Assembly: GCA_018663505.1 (NCBI GenBank)
Contig: JABJQG010000065.1
Location: forward strand, 3,315 to 67,314
DNA length: 64,000 bases
Source: Pseudobdellovibrionaceae bacterium
Lineage (GTDB): Bacteria; Bdellovibrionota; Bdellovibrionia; Bdellovibrionales; UBA1609
Reading direction: 5' to 3'
Of the stretch, positions 9,943-56,135 are shown one piece after another. The position numbers and the translations under genes were made by a program. Within the stretch, counting starts at the first letter, position 1. Each line of letters begins with the position of its first letter. Under the pieces are notes generated by a model that was given only the letters and a program-made list of their open reading frames with translations, was not told where the DNA came from and searched no databases.

Positions 9943-10380
9943 ATGAGTTTATTAGAATCATTAAGCCCGAAAAAAGGCTCTACATATAAGTCAAAACGCA
10001 TAGGTCGAGGAAATGGCTCGGGTAAAGGTGGCACAGCTGGAAAAGGTCACAAAGGCCAAAAAGCTCGCGCCGGTGGATCTATTATTAGAGGATTTGAAGG
10101 TGGACAAACTCCGTTAGCGAGACGTTTACCTAAATTTGGTTTCTCCAATGTGAAGTTTACCACAAGATATGAAATCGTAAATTTAACTGAGCTTAACAAG
10201 TTTTCAGGTGACGTAACTATTGATGTTCTAAAAGAAAGTGGTTTGGTTAAAAAAGGACCAGTTAAAATTTTAGGAGAAGGTGAACTTACAGCCACTATTA
10301 ATATTTCAGCAAATAAATTTAGTAAATCTGCCCAAAAAGCTATCGAAGATAAGGGTGGTAAAGTAGAGGTAGTGAAATAG
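9943..10380 (+). CDS. rplO: 50S ribosomal protein L15
   Basis: KRIGRGNGSGKGGTAGKGHKGQKARAGG. ATG 9943 has GGAGAG upstream. The TTG at 9931 given by the ORF track is less likely. Confidence 0.94.
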   Translation: MSLLESLSPKKGSTYKSKRIGRGNGSGKGGTAGKGHKGQKARAGGSIIRGFEGGQTPLARRLPKFGFSNVKFTTRYEIVNLTELNKFSGDVTIDVLKESGLVKKGPVKILGEGELTATINISANKFSKSAQKAIEDKGGKVEVVK

Positions 10381-11699
10381 TGGCAACTCAACCAAAATTA
10401 GCAATCCCAACCGAGCTTAGAAACAGAATATTATTTACATTGGCAATTTTGGCAGTTTATCGCGTTGGAGTGGCTGTGCCTACTCCTGGAGTCGACGGAA
10501 CGGCTGTGTTAGAATTTTTTAAACAACAAAGTGGTGGTATTTTTGGTTTATTTAATACTTTCACTGGTGGCGCGTTAGAGAAATTTAGTGTTTTGGCATT
10601 AGGAATTATGCCATATATTTCTGCATCTATTATTTTTCAGCTACTACAGTCTGCGGTTCCATATTTAGAAGCATTAAAAAAAGAAGGCGATGCCGGTAGA
10701 AAGAAGATTAACCAATATACTAGATATGCAACAGTAGGATTAGCCATTGTTCAAGGTTATGCTATGGCGTCCTGGTTTGTTGGATCGTCCGCATCTGGAA
10801 CACCTTTGGTTAGAACACCCTATTTTGCAGGTATTCCATTTGAAATAATGACTACAATTACCTTAACTGCTGGCACATGCTTTATTATGTGGTTAGGTGA
10901 GCTAATTACAGAAAAAGGTATTGGTAATGGAGCAAGTTTAATAATTTTTGCAGGAATTGCAGCGGGAATTCCTTCAGGTACAATGAACCTTATTGAAATG
11001 GTTAAGTCTGGGGACATGAGTGGTGTTGTTGCATTAGCACTTGTTCTTGGTATGGTCGCAATTATTGGTGCTATTGTTTATGTGGAAGTTGCTCAGAGAA
11101 GAATACCTATCCAGTATTCCTCTCGCGGTGCTGGTAAACATGCAATGACACAGCAATCGTCACATTTACCTTTAAAAGTAAACTTCGCCAATGTTATACC
11201 CCCTATATTTGCATCTAGCATCTTGATGTTTCCAGCTACAATAGCCCAGTTTGTTGAGGCTCCGTGGGTGCAAAACATGCAAGAGCAGCTTACGCCTTCT
11301 GGATCTATTTATAATGTGTTTTTTGTGGGGTTAATTGTGTTCTTTTGTTTTTTCTATACTGAAATTCAGTTCAACCCTACAGAAGTAGCAGATAATTTAA
11401 AAAAATATGGAGGCTTTGTGCCTGGTGTACGCGCCGGTAAAAATACAGCGGATTATATTAAAAAGGTTTTAGATCGTTTAACAGTAAGTGGTGCTATTTA
11501 CTTGAGTGTGATTTGCATCTTGCCAACAATACTTATTGATAAAATGAATTTGCCTTTTTATTTTGGTGGCACAAGTTTGCTTATCCTAGTGGGTGTGGCC
11601 CTTGATACTAGTCAACAGATTCAATCTCACCTCATCACTGCTAAGTATGATGGCGTTGTTGGTGGTACAAAAATTAAAAGTAGAAGGGTTCGGTACTAA
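10380..11699 (+). CDS. secY: Preprotein translocase subunit SecY (GTG start, 1-nt overlap with the rplO stop)
   Basis: 439 aa, 10-TM pattern, ALGIMPYISASIIFQLL and GGTSLLILVGVALDT motifs. Confidence 0.97.
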   Translation: MATQPKLAIPTELRNRILFTLAILAVYRVGVAVPTPGVDGTAVLEFFKQQSGGIFGLFNTFTGGALEKFSVLALGIMPYISASIIFQLLQSAVPYLEALKKEGDAGRKKINQYTRYATVGLAIVQGYAMASWFVGSSASGTPLVRTPYFAGIPFEIMTTITLTAGTCFIMWLGELITEKGIGNGASLIIFAGIAAGIPSGTMNLIEMVKSGDMSGVVALALVLGMVAIIGAIVYVEVAQRRIPIQYSSRGAGKHAMTQQSSHLPLKVNFANVIPPIFASSILMFPATIAQFVEAPWVQNMQEQLTPSGSIYNVFFVGLIVFFCFFYTEIQFNPTEVADNLKKYGGFVPGVRAGKNTADYIKKVLDRLTVSGAIYLSVICILPTILIDKMNLPFYFGGTSLLILVGVALDTSQQIQSHLITAKYDGVVGGTKIKSRRVRY

Positions 11700-12338
11700 A
11701 TGAACGTAATACTTTTTGGTGCCCCAGGTGTAGGCAAAGGGACCCAGTCGTCTTTTTTAATTGATAAACTTGATATGAGACATATTAGCACAGGTGATTT
11801 GTTCCGCTATGCTATAAAGAACAAAACAACTTTGGGGCAAGAAGCTAGCAGGTATATGGATGAAGGTAAGTTAGTGCCCGATTCCATAGTGATTGGTATG
11901 GTAGAAGAAGTGCTTGAAAAGTTAAATGGACAAAATTTTATATTAGATGGTTTTCCAAGAACTGGCACTCAGGCTGAAGCGCTTGAGAACTTACTGAAAG
12001 TTTTTAAGCTTAATATTGGAAAGGTTATTTCAATTAAGGTTCCTGAGGATGTACTGATAGGAAGACTCACTGGCAGAAGAGTATGTAAAGGCTGTGGGGC
12101 TGTATTTCACCAAGAAGCTAAACCAACCCAAGAAGAGGGTGTTTGTGATTCTTGTGGTGGTGACGTAGTGCAAAGAAGTGATGATAAAGAAGATGTTATT
12201 CAGCAACGTCTTGAAGAATATGAAAATAATACAAAACCTGTTAAAGATTTTTATGAAAAACAGAGTAAGTTAGTAGAAGTTGATGGTTTAGGTTCTGCAG
12301 AGGAAGTGTTCGAAAGAATTCGCCAGTGTATACATTAA
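11700..12338 (+). CDS. adk: Adenylate kinase (Cys4 zinc-lid type)
   Basis: P-loop [10 protein letters not shown]. The lid reads CKGCG...CDSCGG. The gene starts immediately after the secY stop. Confidence 0.96.
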
Positions 12339-12524: not shown

Positions 12525-12899
12525 ATGGCTCGTATTGCAGGTGTTGATTTACCCAGAAATAAGAGAATGGAAATTGCTTTAACTTATATTTATGGTATTG
12601 GACGTACTAGTGCTAAAAATATTTGTACAAAGTTAAACTTTGATCAATCTTTAAGAACAGATGCTCTAAATGAAGTGCAGTTAGCTGATCTACGAGCTCT
12701 TCTAGAGGGTGAGTACAAGGTTGAAGGTGATAAAAGACGTGAAGTTGGATTAAATTTGAAGCGCCTTATGGATTTAGGTTGCTATAGAGGCATTCGTCAT
12801 AGACGCGGACTTCCTTGTCGGGGACAAAGTACTCGTCAAAATGCAAGGACTCGAAAAGGACCTAAGAAAACAGTGGCAAATAAAAAGAAAGCTATTTAA
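12525..12899 (+). CDS. rpsM: 30S ribosomal protein S13
   Basis: [14 protein letters not shown]...[17 protein letters not shown]. Confidence 0.97.
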
Positions 12900-15905: not shown

Positions 15906-17882
15906 TTAGAACTTAAATTTCTTTTTTAAATCTTCTAGTGCTTTTTTGCCTTTCTTTTCTAGGTTCTTTTTAGCTTTATTCTTTGCTTTATTTTTATTCA
16001 GATCTTTTGTGGCTTTGTTTTTTGCTGAGGTGACTTGTTTTTTTGATTTACTGATTTTGTTATCTATTTCTGACTTTACTTTACTAAACTCACCTGTGAG
16101 TTTTTCTCTTTCGGCGTTAATCTTATTGTCTACGTAATCTTTAATCTTTTTTCTTGCTTCATCAATTTTAGCCTGAAGTTGCTTTTTGAACCCTTTGGAA
16201 AGCTCAGATCCAAGGTTTGAGTTTATGTTCCACTTAATGTCAGACCAGCTTCCAGTAGCTTCTGATACTATTGTAACAAGCGGCATACCATTAACTACAT
16301 TAGTGAGAACCTCTTTGATATCTTTATTGTTACTAGCAATGTCATATTTAAGTTTAGTGAAGTAGTTTTTAGCTGTGATCTGGATTTTTGAGTCTTTCAT
16401 GACTCCTTTGATTTCTGATCGGCCATGGGCTTCACGTATTGCGAATTCAACAGAGTCGCTGCTTGATAGTTTTTTGTAGCCTAAAGGGAAGCTTTTAATA
16501 CTTGTGGATAAGGTATCCACGGCTTCGTCTTTTGTGTGATCAAGCGTTAGGTTGGCATCAATTCCAAAAATATTTTGATTTGGGAAATCTCCCTTTAAGG
16601 TGAAGATGGTGGGGATCCCTAGTGTAGTTGGAGATGAGGTTAAATTTGTTAATTCTCCCGTAAGGTCACCGCCAAATTCAGATTTTTCTGCTTTAGAACT
16701 TATTTTAGCATGTTTCAGCCAAAAAAGAGGGTAGCCTTTTTTCCTTGAGAAGTTATAGTTTCGACCATTTTGGCGTTTTGATGGGATGAGGTCTGGTTGT
16801 TTTTCGCTAGCTGTTTTTTTCGGTGGCATATATTTTTTTCCCATCTCAATATACTTGGCGTATCCAGCAATTCGTTCTTGAAACATTTTTCCAAATAATT
16901 TTTTAGAGAAACCTTTAGTGTCAATTTGTGGAATTTTAAATCTCTTTTGTAGGTCATTAATATCTTTATTAACTAAGGCTTCAATTTCTTTGATTGATGC
17001 GTTTAGTCCATTAATATCTTTGTTTAATCCTTTGCCTGTAGAGTTTACTAATTTAATTTGACGATCGGCATCTTTGATAATCTTATCTAAAGTTTTCAAA
17101 TCATTGGCAAACTGTTTAGGGTTCTTGGTATTAAATTTTAATTTTTTAATTTGAGTGTTTATTTTGTTAAGCTCCTTTTGATTTGGGAGTTCTTTTATTC
17201 TTTTATCCCAAAGAAGCTTTTTTTCATCTAACGCTTTTTGAATTTCATTTATTCGCTTTTCTGATTTAAGTTCAGAAGTAATTTTATTAAGTTGATCGTC
17301 ACTATTGGTTCCACCAAGAATATTAGCAATGTCTCCCAATACATTTTGGTCAAAATCACCTTTTGCTTGCTCTAACACTTTGCTTTCAACTTCTTTTAAG
17401 GCTTTGTTCGCTCCAGAAGGTTCTTCGCCGGGAGGGGTAGGTGGCACAACATATCCTACTTTAGCTCTTTTTGAGGCTACTAAAATATTTTCTATGGAAG
17501 CTTTTTCTACAACAAATTTTGCACGTAGCAGGGCATCCCAGACTAACTGAAATTTTATTTGCCCGATTTCTAAGAGGTTGTGAGTCGGTTTTTCTTTATT
17601 TGTTATTGCTAGGCCGTAAAGGTGAAAATATGCACCAAAAAAACTGGATTCTATTTTACTAATATTGACTTCAGCTCCGTGAACTTGTGTACCACCAAAT
17701 TCTAAGGCTGACTTTAGGTTGGAATCAAAAAGGAATTTGAAATATAAGAATACAGCCAGAATAACAACTACTACAGGGATGATGGCCTCTAGGCGAATGG
17801 GACCTTTTTGTTTATTTTTTTTATCAGATTTTTTATTTGAGTTTTCTTTTTTAATCTCTTGATCATTGGTGTTATCGCTCAT
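15906..17882 (-). CDS. Lys-rich single-pass membrane protein of unknown function; resembles the uncharacterised TIGR03545 family (assignment from memory)
   Basis: 658 aa. It has a basic N-terminal tail, one TM helix (AIIPVVVVILAVFLYFKFLF), long coiled-coil-like Lys/Glu-rich segments and a Lys-rich C-terminus. It lies immediately downstream of a TIGR03546-like gene. Confidence 0.55.
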   Translation of the reverse strand: MSDNTNDQEIKKENSNKKSDKKNKQKGPIRLEAIIPVVVVILAVFLYFKFLFDSNLKSALEFGGTQVHGAEVNISKIESSFFGAYFHLYGLAITNKEKPTHNLLEIGQIKFQLVWDALLRAKFVVEKASIENILVASKRAKVGYVVPPTPPGEEPSGANKALKEVESKVLEQAKGDFDQNVLGDIANILGGTNSDDQLNKITSELKSEKRINEIQKALDEKKLLWDKRIKELPNQKELNKINTQIKKLKFNTKNPKQFANDLKTLDKIIKDADRQIKLVNSTGKGLNKDINGLNASIKEIEALVNKDINDLQKRFKIPQIDTKGFSKKLFGKMFQERIAGYAKYIEMGKKYMPPKKTASEKQPDLIPSKRQNGRNYNFSRKKGYPLFWLKHAKISSKAEKSEFGGDLTGELTNLTSSPTTLGIPTIFTLKGDFPNQNIFGIDANLTLDHTKDEAVDTLSTSIKSFPLGYKKLSSSDSVEFAIREAHGRSEIKGVMKDSKIQITAKNYFTKLKYDIASNNKDIKEVLTNVVNGMPLVTIVSEATGSWSDIKWNINSNLGSELSKGFKKQLQAKIDEARKKIKDYVDNKINAEREKLTGEFSKVKSEIDNKISKSKKQVTSAKNKATKDLNKNKAKNKAKKNLEKKGKKALEDLKKKFKF

Positions 17883-17885
17883 AGT

Positions 17886-17962
17886 GTTATCCTGTTATCC
17901 TGTTATCCTGTTATCCTGTTATCCTGTTATCCTGTTATCCTGTTATCCTGTTATCCTGTTAT
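17886..17962 (-). repeat. Perfect tandem octanucleotide repeat: (GTTATCCT)x9 plus a partial unit, which reads (AGGATAAC)n on the coding strand
   Basis: Read directly from the sequence. It fills the leader immediately upstream of the ATG at 17882, and the last unit supplies AGGA 7 nt before the ATG. Confidence 0.95.
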
Positions 17963-18019
17963 TTGCTAATCACTTTTAGCTGAGATGGTTCAGTCGCCTT
18001 AATTAATTTGAGACTAAGT

Positions 18020-44821: not shown

Positions 44822-44974
44822 GTTATACTCCGTCTATGAAATTTGCGTGAGTTCTCTTTAAAGGCGCACAAAAAATGAGTTCAGCGTGGAGGCCAAAGGC
44901 CGAGCACTGCCTGTCTGAAAGTTTTTAGGTGCCTTTAAAGAGAACTCACGCAAATTTCATAGACGGAGTATAAC
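44822..44974 (+). repeat. Composite hairpin element, copy 1: 44-bp perfect inverted arms (44822-44865 / 44931-44974) around a 65-nt loop carrying a conserved 42-nt core (44877-44918)
   Basis: Arms and core were read directly. The core GAGTTCAGCGTGGAGGCCAAAGGCCGAGCACTGCCTGTCTGA matches 52515-52556 on the opposite strand at 38 of 42 positions. Confidence 0.9.
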
Positions 44975-52180: not shown

Positions 52181-52408
52181 TTATTTCTCGATAGTTTTGA
52201 TTGATAAAGCATGGAGTTCGCCAGATTTAAGCTCCACATCAAAAACAGACATAATAGCCTGATGCCTTTTAATACGGTTCATATCTTTAAACTCTTTTGC
52301 TGCCACACGGACTTCCCAGTGGTCACCACCACCAGTAAGGTCCATGGCAACAACATCGCTACCGGGAAATGATTTTTGAATTTTGTCTTCTATATATTCT
52401 TGTGTCAT
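52181..52408 (-). CDS. bolA: BolA-family protein
   Basis: GGGDHWEVRVAAKEF...RHQAIMSVF...LHALSIKT. ATG 52408 has GAGGTGG upstream; the track start 52423 is a TTG. Confidence 0.88.
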   Translation of the reverse strand: MTQEYIEDKIQKSFPGSDVVAMDLTGGGDHWEVRVAAKEFKDMNRIKRHQAIMSVFDVELKSGELHALSIKTIEK

Positions 52409-52458
52409 ATTTTTCCACCTCAAAGCCTTAAAGGGACTTCTAGTTTAGTTGTATTTTA

Positions 52459-52611
52459 GTGTCGTGCTTTGCATTGCTCGTAGTTTAAAATAGTTATTTT
52501 TAACACCAAAAGGCTCAAACAGGCAGTGCTCGGCCTACGGCCTCCGCGCTGAACTCGCTTTAGGCGCAAAAAATAATTATTTTAAACTACGAGCAATGCA
52601 AAGCACGACAC
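52459..52611 (-). repeat. Composite hairpin element, copy 2: 43-bp arms (52459-52501 / 52569-52611, one G:T) around a 67-nt loop with the conserved core on the minus strand (52515-52556)
   Basis: Read directly. The arms are unrelated to those of copy 1, whereas the core and the core-stem junction are shared. Confidence 0.9.
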
Positions 52612-52693
52612 CACTGCTAGCACATTGTTATCACGAAGCTATTTAGGAACTAAGCTCCTTGATTCGAACGTCACACCGTGTTAAGAATGGCTT

Positions 52694-52975
52694 ATGGATT
52701 ATTACGAGCCTGCTTCTGAGGCACACAAAAAAAAACAACGAGTAAAAGCAAGAGAGCTGAAAGCGTCCAACTGGTGGCGTCAACAATTGCAAAAAGGCCT
52801 GTGTTATTACTGTGGAAGCCGATTTCCTTCTACCGAATTAACCATGGATCATAAGGTGGCAGTGGCTCGTGGGGGATTTTCAACTAAGTCTAATATTGTG
52901 CCCTGTTGTAAAGATTGTAATACAAAAAAGAGGCATTTAACCCCAGCGGAAATGATACTTAACAACAAATCTTAA
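52694..52975 (+). CDS. Small HNH endonuclease-domain protein
   Basis: CYYCGSRF...DHKVAVARGG...NIVPCCKDCNTKK (CxxC...H-N-H...CxxC). Confidence 0.85.
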   Translation: MDYYEPASEAHKKKQRVKARELKASNWWRQQLQKGLCYYCGSRFPSTELTMDHKVAVARGGFSTKSNIVPCCKDCNTKKRHLTPAEMILNNKS

Positions 52976-53059
52976 TTTGCTTGTGGACACAATTCCCCTA
53001 AAGTCCTTAAACTACTTAAATAAAACCAGAAGTTGAAAATCTAAAAAAAAGGATGTTGC

Positions 53060-54943
53060 GTGTCTAGCAAAATCACAACAAGTAGTACGGCAGAATACTT
53101 CGCTAAAAATTTACAGCAAGTGGGTTTCTCTTCTCCGCTTAAAGCAGTTTTAACTACCTTAAAAGAGGCCGTTGATAATTCATTAGATGCCTGTGAAGAC
53201 GAGGGCATAGCACCGGAAATCACAGTTCAGATCAAGAAAGTAGGGAAGGGTTCCTCAAAATCTGCTGACCTGATAGTGGTTACAGTTGAGGATAACGGGC
53301 CAGGGTTGGATGAAACCTTGTTGCCCAAAGTATTTGGTGAGTATTTAGCCTCATCTAAGTTTGGCCGTGGCCAGTGTTCTCGTGGACAACAGGGGATAGG
53401 AATTTCCGCTGCCACAACTTGGGCTCAGTTAACAAATGCTCAAGGTGTGAAAGTCATATCGAAAACAAAAAAAATGCGCAAAGCTATTGAGGCAATCATC
53501 GATGTAAATATCAAAGGAAATAAAGGGGTTATTAAAAACCGCAAATCCGTTGATTGGGATAAGCCACATGGTTTAAAGGCTGAGTTTAGAATTGACGGCC
53601 GAGTACAGTTAAACGGTGATGGTGGGATTTTAACATACCTTGAGGGCACAACGTTAGTTAACCCACATCTGACCTTAAACTATAAGCTTTTAGACCATGA
53701 TTGGGTGAATATTGGGCGTGTATCCGAATTTGTTCCACAGGTGCCAAAGCCTACTTTACCTCACCCACACACAATGAAGCTGGGTGAGTTTATGACTCAT
53801 GCTCATTTATTTGGTAAATTAACTTTAAAAAAATTCTTAACCACTGGTTTTTCTAGAATATCTGATGCCACGATCAAGGATTTTACAAAAAAGGGCTTAA
53901 AAAGAGCATACTTAAGTCAACCTCTTGTTAAATTTAACGAGACTGATTTTAAAGAAGTGTTTCGCGTGATTCAAGATACTGATTTAGCAAACCCAACAAC
54001 TAGGTCTGTATTAGTGGTTGGAGAAGAATCACTTTCTAAAAGTATTCAACGCTTGGGTGATATTGATTTTTTTAGTGTTATGACAAGGAAGCCCAAGATT
54101 TGTGATTTTAAACCAGTGGTGGTTGAAGTGGCTATTGCTAGATTTTTAAATAAATCTCAAGATGCCGAATCTCAAGGGGTACAACTTTTAAGATTTGCCA
54201 ATAGAGTACCGTTACAATTTGATAAAGCTTCCTGTGCAATTACAAAAGCAGTGGAGTCCGTGACTTGGCGATCTTACGGTTTAGCTCAATCGAAAAACTC
54301 ATTGCCTCAGGGGCCATATGTTATTGCGGTAAGCGTGACATCTCCTTTTATTAAATTTAAAAATGCATCCAAAGAAACTATTGATGCTAGTGAAGAGTTA
54401 GTTGAGGAAATTCGACGAGCATTGATGCAAGCGGGGCAGAAGCTAGGTAGACATATTCGAAGAGAGAATAAAGCGGCTGATTTAGAGAGAAAAATTGCTT
54501 ATATTGCTAAGTTTGGTCCTATATTGGTAGATGGTTTGGCGAGAATTGCTAAGGCTCCAAAAACCAGAAGAAATAAAGCAGAAGAGGGCTTAAATAAGAT
54601 TTTAGGCAAAGATTCGAAAGAGGCTGAGAATGAATTAAAACAAGCAGAGGACCGTTTAACAGCACAAAAAGCAAAACAGAAAGAAAAATTTGGTGATTTA
54701 AGCATAGATAAGGACCCAGCTGTTCAAGAATCTAAGCCAGCTGTAAAGGCAACTACAAAGAAGGCTGTCTCTAAGAAAACGACAAGTAAAGTAGTAAAAA
54801 AGGCTTCAAAAAAAGTTGTTAAAAAAGTCGCTAAGAAAACGGCAAAAAAGAAAGCTACTAAGAAAAAAGTTGTTAAGAAAAAAATAGCGAAAAAGAAAAC
54901 AACAAAAAAAGTCAAAAAGACAATTTTACGCAAGAAGAAGTAA
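53060..54943 (+). CDS. top6B: DNA topoisomerase VI subunit B (GHKL ATPase) with a ~76-aa Lys-rich C-terminal tail
   Basis: Bergerat-fold motifs EAVDNSLDA (N-box), VEDNGPGL (G1) and SRGQQGIGISAA (G2). The size and the transducer-like C-terminal half fit Top6B. GTG start with AAAGGA upstream. Confidence 0.85.
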   Translation: MSSKITTSSTAEYFAKNLQQVGFSSPLKAVLTTLKEAVDNSLDACEDEGIAPEITVQIKKVGKGSSKSADLIVVTVEDNGPGLDETLLPKVFGEYLASSKFGRGQCSRGQQGIGISAATTWAQLTNAQGVKVISKTKKMRKAIEAIIDVNIKGNKGVIKNRKSVDWDKPHGLKAEFRIDGRVQLNGDGGILTYLEGTTLVNPHLTLNYKLLDHDWVNIGRVSEFVPQVPKPTLPHPHTMKLGEFMTHAHLFGKLTLKKFLTTGFSRISDATIKDFTKKGLKRAYLSQPLVKFNETDFKEVFRVIQDTDLANPTTRSVLVVGEESLSKSIQRLGDIDFFSVMTRKPKICDFKPVVVEVAIARFLNKSQDAESQGVQLLRFANRVPLQFDKASCAITKAVESVTWRSYGLAQSKNSLPQGPYVIAVSVTSPFIKFKNASKETIDASEELVEEIRRALMQAGQKLGRHIRRENKAADLERKIAYIAKFGPILVDGLARIAKAPKTRRNKAEEGLNKILGKDSKEAENELKQAEDRLTAQKAKQKEKFGDLSIDKDPAVQESKPAVKATTKKAVSKKTTSKVVKKASKKVVKKVAKKTAKKKATKKKVVKKKIAKKKTTKKVKKTILRKKK

Positions 54944-54974
54944 TTTAACTTAAGATTTAAAAAGAGAGCGGTAT

Positions 54975-56135
54975 ATGGCTTTATTGAAAGTAAGAAAATC
55001 AAAAATTAACATCCCTAAAGAAGCTCAACTTATGTGTGATAAGATGTTAAAGGATCTTGAGCGGTCAAAACGACCCGTGTTAACCGCAGTAAAATGCTCA
55101 CTGGATAACTCCTTATATAATTCTAGAGTGGGTTACCTAACTCCTGGTGATAAGCGAGTAAAAACAGAGCTGAACGTGTCTTCAGTACAAAAGCTAGCCA
55201 GAACGGTTTTTATGTTAGAAGTATTACTTAATAATATCGATACAGGCGCTGTGAATACAAAACGTGAGCTTTACTATATGGCAAAAGGTTTAGTGAAGTC
55301 AGAAAAAGAGTTAAAACCCCTAGATTTTGAAGAGCAAACGGAAAGTGACGCAGTTATCGATTATATCTGTGATGTTTTAGAAGTTTACCGTGAGGAGTTA
55401 AACTGTTTTGCCAATGACCGTGGTGGACAGACATACTCTAAGGAGTTAATTGTTACTGAAACTTTATCTGACGGGACTAAGGCAACTGTAGAGCTGGGCT
55501 CCCTGGGGACCTCACCGTTTCAGCCAAAGAATAAGCCTCAAGCTTTACAGCTAAAAGCTAAAAAGAAAATTGATTTTTGCTTAGTGGTGGAATCAGAAGG
55601 TACGGCAAATACACTTGTGGCCAACGGTTTTACTAAAAGAAATAAGTGTATTGTTATGGGTGCTCAGGGTGTGCCATCAAATGCAGTTCGTGGGTGGTGT
55701 AAAACTATCCAAGATCAATTAAAAGTTCCAATATACTTTTTTGGAGATCTGGACGCCTATACATTACAAAATATTTATAGAACTCTCAAAGCGGGTTCTG
55801 CAGCCAGCTTAATTAGAAACTCTGATTTTTCGGCTCCACAAGTCCGTTTTTTAGGGGTATTGCCCGAAGATGTAAAAAAATATGACCTACTTTGCTATGA
55901 CGTGACTACTAAAGATGCTAGCGATGCACGTTCTTTAAAAAAGGCTAAGGATGCTTTGGAAAATGATCCATTTTTTAAGGATAAGAAAAATAAAAAGCTA
56001 GCTTCAATTCTTCATTGGTTAATTAAAAATAAGGTGCGTTGTGAACAGCAGTCCTTATTCTCTGTAAATCCAAAAGACCCACTAACCACCGAAAAAATTA
56101 TCCTAGAAAAGATAAAAAGAGGCAGTTACGTTTAG
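54975..56135 (+). CDS. top6A: DNA topoisomerase VI subunit A (Spo11-like: 5Y-CAP + Toprim)
   Basis: KRELYYMAKG (catalytic Tyr region), Toprim VVESEGTANTL and FFGDLDAYTLQNIY (DxD); 386 aa. Confidence 0.85.
   Translation: MALLKVRKSKINIPKEAQLMCDKMLKDLERSKRPVLTAVKCSLDNSLYNSRVGYLTPGDKRVKTELNVSSVQKLARTVFMLEVLLNNIDTGAVNTKRELYYMAKGLVKSEKELKPLDFEEQTESDAVIDYICDVLEVYREELNCFANDRGGQTYSKELIVTETLSDGTKATVELGSLGTSPFQPKNKPQALQLKAKKKIDFCLVVESEGTANTLVANGFTKRNKCIVMGAQGVPSNAVRGWCKTIQDQLKVPIYFFGDLDAYTLQNIYRTLKAGSAASLIRNSDFSAPQVRFLGVLPEDVKKYDLLCYDVTTKDASDARSLKKAKDALENDPFFKDKKNKKLASILHWLIKNKVRCEQQSLFSVNPKDPLTTEKIILEKIKRGSYV

Follow-up and report, generated by a model that had tools for sequence, protein, structure and literature searches.

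A stable hairpin occupies the spacer between bolA and the HNH gene

In the window (the whole stretch of DNA analysed here, 64 kb from a Pseudobdellovibrionaceae bacterium), bolA, with grx downstream, diverges from a small HNH gene that is followed by the genes for topo VI B and A. The 285-nt spacer between these divergent genes harbors a 153-nt inverted repeat (52459-52611), hereafter copy 2, whose 43-bp arms enclose a 67-nt loop (Table 1). A preliminary description of the locus had proposed this 43-bp pairing with one G:T, and it was borne out at the exact coordinates, the only mismatch setting a G of the left arm against a T of the right arm, as read on the + strand. Inward of the arms, an imperfect and weaker pairing reaches 52512/52558, and the base of the loop is closed by 52503-52512 pairing with 52558-52567 (GCGCCTAAAG) via two G:T and one T:T. 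When folded whole, the element reached -80 to -82 kcal/mol whichever strand was used, with z-scores of -12 and -15. Copy 2 ends 35 nt from the start of bolA if the TTG at 52423 is taken as start codon, and 50 nt from it if the ATG at 52408 is; the earlier statement that copy 2 is co-oriented with bolA and lies a short distance from its start was likewise correct.

A second hairpin of the window, copy 1, is located 61 nt past the stop codon of an MMPL-type transporter gene and 103 nt ahead of a response-regulator gene. The loop of copy 2 had been said to hold the same core in reverse orientation; indeed, its core is 83% complementary over 54 nt to that of 44822-44974, so the two cores are oppositely oriented on the + strand. 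A 24-nt core pattern with 21 specified bases matched two sites in the 64-kb window against 0.00 expected from 100 shuffles, and the resemblance between the two cores far exceeds chance. Besides copies 1 and 2, near-perfect arms did not exceed 17 nt in a listing of the inverted repeats of the window, and whatever was longer was only 70-80% complementary. Copy 1 carries the most divergent core of the family described below, yet its 44-bp arms are perfect, which suggests active upkeep of arm pairing by conversion or selection; such upkeep would also fit a functional hairpin.

Table 1. Coordinates of the two hairpins within the window
Feature	Position	Strand	Remarks
Copy 1 outer arm	44822..44865	.	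44 nt, perfect; inner two bases GC, where other copies have TA
Copy 1 core	44866..44930	+	65 nt, GCACAAAAAATGAGTTCAGCGTGGAGGCCAAAGGCCGAGCACTGCCTGTCTGAAAGTTTTTAGGT; nhmmer E = 4.3e-19
Copy 1 outer arm	44931..44974	.	44 nt, complementary to 44822-44865
Copy 2 outer arm	52459..52501	.	43 nt, unique to copy 2; pairs with 52569-52611
Copy 2 loop	52502..52568	-	65-nt core plus one base on each side, where most family members have TA
Copy 2 core	52503..52567	-	65 nt, - strand reads GCGCCTAAAGCGAGTTCAGCGCGGAGGCCGTAGGCCGAGCACTGCCTGTTTGAGCCTTTTGGTGT; nhmmer with family profile E = 6.5e-21
Copy 2 basal imperfect stem, 3' half / core terminal repeat	52503..52512	-	CTTTTGGTGT on - strand
Copy 2 apical mini-hairpin	52532..52542	-	GGCC-GTA-GGCC
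Copy 2 outer arm	52569..52611	.	43 nt, complementary to 52459-52501

The core recurs at dispersed intergenic sites of a low-GC population

Of the 28 loci that a metagenome scan for a 19-base core pattern yielded, 11 were GC-rich chance matches and 17 were contigs of 35-39% GC with a full core. Removal of duplicates left at least 11 distinct core loci, namely the two of the window and nine in metagenome contigs of the same low-GC population (L081, L083, L088, L089, L091, L098, L100, L101, and L105). The window's own strain was present at 100% identity in one source sample (L116). Among GTDB representatives, the best topo VI-B matches of this uncultured bacterium are 77-79% identical, and three core patterns run against the representative genomes found only chance matches in GC-rich genomes or the L070 locus discussed below, indicating that the lineage is not represented there. 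Viral contigs scanned for the core pattern gave only chance matches in GC-rich contigs, and comparison of the core with INPHARED phages and PLSDB plasmids produced only a marginal 29-nt rV5-like phage match (E = 0.05). The latter, 93% identical to the core centre GGCCAAAGGCCGAGCACTG, maps to 401-428 of L132 (Escherichia phage phita32; ~100 rV5-like phages) in an unannotated spacer without a surrounding palindrome, and is probably due to chance.

The conserved unit is GC-rich and 65 nt long (64 in L081). It is delimited by an imperfect terminal inverted repeat of ~10 nt, GC[A/G]C.AAAAG ... CTTTT.G[G/T]GT, conserved as GCACAAAAAG / ACCCAAAAAG (ends GCACAAAAAG...CTTTTTGGGT), and an A-run and a T-run (AAAAAG ... 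CTTTTT) enclose its imperfect inner hairpin. The GGCC stems of the mini-hairpin are invariant in 11/11 copies, variation being confined to the 3-nt apex (AAA, GTA, or GAA); as already noticed in the preliminary description, this GGCC-NNN-GGCC apex accounts for two of the four differences between the central 42-mers of copies 1 and 2. TA borders the core on both sides in 8 of the 11 copies and on one side in two (copy 2 and L089), copy 1 having GC on both sides, and the context of this TA is often ATC-TA-GAT or TT-TA-AA. Since TA and GC are self-complementary, a possible target duplication is inseparable from the innermost arm pairs.

All 11 copies are intergenic, in mixed orientation with respect to the neighbouring genes. 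Eight lie 10-63 nt past a stop codon, with the next start codon farther away in seven of these, and two, copy 2 included, sit between divergent genes. That most copies lie soon after stop codons, and mostly nearer to these than to the next start codon, would suit mobile bidirectional terminator modules under selection, whose core terminates both ways and whose long arms are secondary. The A- and T-runs bracketing the inner core hairpin also speak for such modules, as do the A6-8 ... T6-8 of the L070-type core and the known case of a terminator-like dispersed repeat in pneumococci (SPRITE; PMC3049150, PMC3184786). However, a consensus terminator scan reports none at copy 1 or copy 2, the stem beside the U-run is weak and interrupted, the divergent genes flanking two of the copies need no terminator, and the copy-specific arms are left unexplained, all of which makes terminator modules very unlikely in our view. 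In 150 kb of this population, neither solitary half-sites nor a transposase or autonomous partner sharing these ends came to light. The best reading of copy 2 is as a member of a lineage-specific, MITE-like family of small, non-coding, dispersed palindromic elements, not as a bolA-specific leader.

Several short contigs end at the element centre (L117, L119, L128, L129), as they might if the palindrome were an assembly or library artefact, e.g., from a hairpin adapter or an amplification chimera. Nevertheless, the same sequence with its non-palindromic flanks was recovered from many samples and by different assemblers at 99.8-100% identity, the arms cover only ~40 bp before running into different unique flanks on each side, and point substitutions distinguish the cores between loci. 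We therefore reject an artefact, SMRTbell-type or other, as exceedingly improbable, given the agreement between independent assemblies and the non-palindromic flanks. Rather, because short contigs from this strain stop at the core centres or close to them, the elements break short-read assemblies, and whichever mechanism built their arms, anyone assembling metagenomes should reckon with them as a practical hazard.

The element is absent from the bolA-HNH spacer of related bacteria

The bolA/HNH/topo VI arrangement is kept in 54 of 80 Bdellovibrionales loci (L001-L080), and the element is absent from the bolA-HNH spacer of all 54. These spacers measure 55-211 nt in 47 loci and 333 and 387 nt in two others, and are interrupted by several kb in the remaining five. 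The core is likewise missing at the three closest HNH homologues (L120-L122; 66-74% identity), where the spacer measures 139, about 107, and 87 nt. Subtraction of the element from the spacer of the window leaves 132 nt (285 - 153), and the spacer length is matched somewhat better when all 153 nt are taken out than when the core plus one arm is. The relatives with an empty site are all distant, their HNH proteins being at most 74% identical to that of the window, and a reconstructed empty site with either copy 2 arm matched L120 no better than with a shuffled arm, a comparison of low power at such divergence. Exact-protein look-ups of the flanking genes disclosed no filled/empty polymorphism: every strain-level contig that spans a site is filled, and the shorter ones stop inside or short of the elements. 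In the same region (52181-56135), topo VI-B ends in a long lysine-rich tail with KKxxKK repeats.

These comparisons, together with the family itself, do not support the earlier proposal that copy 2 could be part of the bolA-grxD leader. At least 11 copies are dispersed beside unrelated genes in both orientations, and the element is missing both at the 54 syntenic loci and next to the three nearest HNH homologues.

Pairing within the core is real but does not single out an RNA function

RNAalifold draws the core of the 11 copies as an imperfect hairpin, with 97.8% standard pair cells on the strand reading GAGTTC vs 91.7% on the other strand. Two core pairs are changed on both sides, one from A-U to C-G in three copies and one from C-G to U-A in copy 1; the former change is seen at pair 13-69 in the subfamily containing copy 2. 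Where only one side of a pair has changed, which happened three times, the result is in every case G-U compatible on the GAGTTC strand. At the junction between core and long stem, the strand reading GAGTTCAGCG has one G:T in copy 1 and two in copy 2, exactly as counted beforehand. Hence, the original claim that the substitution pattern is compatible with RNA structure is partly borne out: all 11 copies fit one imperfect core hairpin, whereas the strand bias is not significant and the fold does not rise above shuffles. Counting all transition-type mismatch events of cores and arms together, the mismatches favor the GAGTTC strand by 8 vs 3, which is not significant. The core alone folded no better than shuffled sequences (z between +0.45 and -1.0).

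Both-side changes are shared within subfamilies and thus stand for few independent events, and they are equally expected for two co-evolving transposase-binding ends. The G:T that is invariant at the junction may just as well represent non-complementary ends of an imperfect terminal repeat (5'-GC...GT-3'). A search of the whole window with Rfam 15 at gathering thresholds passed only one tRNA, and permissive E-values on both copies added only sub-threshold matches to plant miRNA-precursor models, of a kind that any long hairpin produces.

A functional structured RNA, either a cis leader of bolA-grxD or small RNAs that RNase III would cut from the stems and in which the core would be the active element, would account for the better pairing of the GAGTTC strand and the pattern of both-side and G-U compatible changes. 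It would also explain why copy 2 is co-oriented with bolA and close to its start, and why the arms of copy 1 remain perfect around a diverged core. On the other hand, the flanks are unique and so exclude a conserved promoter, the GAGTTC strand is antisense to the mRNA in six of the eight copies between co-directional genes, and relatives lack the element at the same site. The stability of the core at the level of shuffles, the 8 vs 3 bias, the lack of an Rfam match, and the paucity of independent both-side changes, which behave as subfamily markers, weigh further against it, and we deem a structured RNA of either sort quite unlikely. The core pairing is real but shows neither an RNA function nor, certainly, one for bolA, and the bolA-proximal hairpin should not be annotated as a bolA riboregulator.

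Each copy carries arms of its own

The 11 copies each have their own near-perfect arms of 27-46 bp with 0-2 mismatches. L083 and L088 share identical 69-nt centres flanked by unrelated arms, indicating that arms are not inherited along with the core. Similarity was detected neither among the arms of the 11 copies nor between them and the flanks of other copies or the remainder of the 150 kb, and a BLAST search with the copy 2 arm found no other match in these 150 kb of DNA from the same population. The GC content of the arms (0.36) is that of the flanks (0.35-0.37) vs 0.51-0.63 in the cores. Two further origins were considered and discarded: arms captured from foreign DNA, as all 11 arms concatenated had no match in phages, and arms copied from other loci or from the flanks of other copies, as no match appeared in the 150 kb. 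We infer that copies do not pass their arms on, and that inverted duplication of core-adjacent DNA produces arms anew at each site.

IS630/Tc1-mariner elements duplicate TA on insertion. The core could by analogy be a MITE that targets the central TA of pre-existing long palindromes and duplicates it, in which case the arms would be older than the core. The TA borders of most copies, the position of the core exactly on the symmetry axis, and the location of most copies at terminator-like positions past stop codons are all in keeping with such targeting. Core-less long palindromes do exist in the order (L123 2738-2812; L021, L045), but their spacers are of 7-24 nt instead of spacer-less TA centres. 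Insertion of IS elements into palindromic REP units is also known (PMC1525189; PMC3184786), and IS1397, IS621, and ISPpu9 resemble the present core in occupying a defined position within a hairpin-forming target (PMC1525189, PMC12288879, PMC3184786). Their targets are, however, conserved repeats, whereas those required here would be unique palindromes of 80-100 bp, which when perfect are not normal in bacterial intergenic DNA and of which no unfilled example was found in this lineage. Indeed, the 150 kb of this population contain no empty long palindrome, only 11 that are filled and a hairpin whose 39-nt spacer is unrelated, so that palindrome targeting would need nearly all targets to be filled. 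Across ~0.95 Mb of Bdellovibrionales loci, spacer-less long palindromes were similarly absent, and long arms nearly always enclose a core-sized spacer. Considering also that copy 1 has GC instead of TA on both sides and that no transposase was found, we view targeting of older palindromes as unlikely. If the core did home to pre-existing palindromes, it would point to structure-specific targeting.

Hairpins of similar architecture occur elsewhere in Bdellovibrionales

A core-less palindrome at 2738-2812 of L123 (same MAG as L070, JAYUKW010000008.1) consists of 34 perfectly paired bp around a 7-nt spacer. The gene of a 593-aa protein runs into the right arm, where its conserved C-terminus, KIIDLTKSINI (-CQ*), is encoded, and has its stop codon in the loop; the orthologous protein of L039 ends RILNMTRSIDICLKP*. 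Since the right arm is a conserved gene end, the left arm must be a copy of the gene's own 3' end. The L123 palindrome is direct evidence that local inverted duplication occurs in Bdellovibrionales. Next to this palindrome lie two short ORFs that overlap each other (2021-2404 and 2401-2715) and have no counterpart in the orthologous L039 spacer; the latter ORF reads GSRARGDHQKFSDVDIL, by eye a putative motif of the minimal nucleotidyltransferase type.

L070 contains two adjacent hairpins (11567-11734 and 11765-11931) with inverted cores, which start at the last base of a stop codon and combine unique 51-52-bp arms with a different GC-rich core of 64-65 nt bracketed by A6-8 ... T6-8. Hairpins of the same design are found in L069 (3661-3814, a third kind) and L039 (12427-12697). 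Altogether, the hairpins of L070, L069, and L039 have unique arms of 34-96 bp with 0-2 mismatches and spacers of 64-86 nt, GC-rich in L070 and L069. Homology of the window core with those of L070 and L039 was entertained on the strings AAGCGAGT and TGCCATCGAGC, common to them by eye, but nhmmer detected none, nor did it connect the L069 core with the window family, and the resemblance is accordingly termed analogous architecture only.

Other repeats were observed in these loci. In L043, two hairpins (10055-10178 and 10879-10955) have the common arm AAAAGTGTCCGTGTATTTTTT, an ordinary MITE arrangement, and a similar string, AAAAAGTGTCCGAATACATT, lies within the spacer of the L039 hairpin (about 12535-12555), suggesting nested insertions. 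The L039 region orthologous to the spacer with the L070 hairpin pair (10313-10660) has no hairpin; it contains three direct repeats of approximately GT(A/G)TTGCCTC(A/C)TG, which could form a putative regulator-binding array. In the window's own population, the hairpin with the unrelated spacer (L089 4717-4825) has 35-bp arms around AT-rich DNA and lies 26 nt past a stop codon. It is similar to the L039 hairpin (GGTGCCAGG...) at the outer ends, which here read AGTGCCAGG...CCTGGCACT, and each of these two hairpins has a short direct repeat at its left boundary.

Comparison with known repeats and origin of the arms

Correia/NEMIS elements are about 100-160 bp long, and co-transcribed copies can serve as RNase III sites or terminators. 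Like these elements of Neisseria and like MITEs, the family described here is small, non-coding, multi-copy, and intergenic, forms a long hairpin, and is often flanked by TA (PMC3184786). However, the stem of MITEs is made of conserved terminal inverted repeats, whereas here it is copy-specific and conservation resides in the loop and a short basal repeat; unlike MITEs generally, moreover, the family of the window has no parent IS that we could find. REP/BIME and REPIN sequences are mobilised by RAYT transposases and are able to stabilise upstream mRNA. They share with the present elements the condition of extragenic multi-copy palindromes commonly situated just past genes, but REP arms are conserved with a GTAG-type motif, while here the arms are unique, no such motif is conserved in them, and no RAYT was seen.

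Integron attC sites have conserved outer core sites (RYYYAAC ... GTTRRRY) and a variable centre, and occur in a cassette array. The element shows the reverse, with variable outer ends and a conserved centre, and its neighbours are housekeeping genes, so attC was discarded. On grounds of architecture, a retron ncRNA was set aside for want of an RT, and an invertible promoter because the loop is too short to invert. SPRITE of Streptococcus pneumoniae is, like the present family, an intergenic dispersed repeat, of ~100 nt, with a terminator-like conserved part (PMC3049150; PMC3184786), but its copies are alike over the whole sequence and have no copy-specific long stems, and the consensus scan predicts no terminator in the core studied here. 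We thus regard the family as a dispersed palindromic repeat with a conserved loop and unique near-perfect stems, an unusual reversal of the rule for REP, ERIC, Correia, and MITE sequences. A conserved loop with a locus-unique stem calls for a mechanism.

Replication template switching, as in quasi-palindrome correction, is documented to generate inverted repeats and to homogenise, perfect, and lengthen those already present (PMC8794818, PMC10710096, PMC13100816). One such event yields perfect arms out of local sequence and may prolong a short inverted repeat outward, and the L123 palindrome fits this scheme; template switching is, on the other hand, described as sporadic mutation and is not known as the regular companion of a mobile core with 27-46-bp arms at every copy. 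On balance, we lean slightly toward a family of the MITE/REP/Correia kind whose arms are made per site by inverted duplication and which has no bolA-specific role. At insertion, the arms might arise if the terminal repeat of the core acted as a fold-back or snap-back primer, although it counts against such priming that it would need to begin from a terminal G:T pair. Alternatively, replication template switching soon after insertion might extend and perfect the inverted repeat of the core. A more far-reaching possibility, which we advance only tentatively, is a mobile element that builds its own stem, the core folding back on its terminal repeat at or right after integration and priming the copying of neighbouring target DNA, so that every copy would be born with unique, perfect arms of 27-46 bp. 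If so, the L070 and L069 analogues would reflect a general spreading mode for hairpin elements of Bdellovibrionales, and self-built stems would be a source of new terminators or RNase III sites. More broadly, arms copied from target DNA would amount to natural, repeated fold-back or template-switch synthesis coupled to mobility, and would readily supply gene ends with very strong hairpins.

Under the favored reading of a dispersed family with arms duplicated per site, the effect on neighbouring genes would be that of a hairpin of ~-80 kcal/mol, which is predicted to form in RNA transcribed in either direction and might serve as terminator, 3'-end protector, or RNase III substrate. In the divergent bolA/HNH spacer, this hairpin would sit in a 5' leader or between two promoters. 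Any effect on bolA-grxD or HNH-topo VI is most likely that of a generic, very stable hairpin.

Elsewhere in the window, at 17869-17986, the octamer TGTTATCC is repeated in tandem in ~11 in-register copies with a start-to-start spacing of 8 nt.
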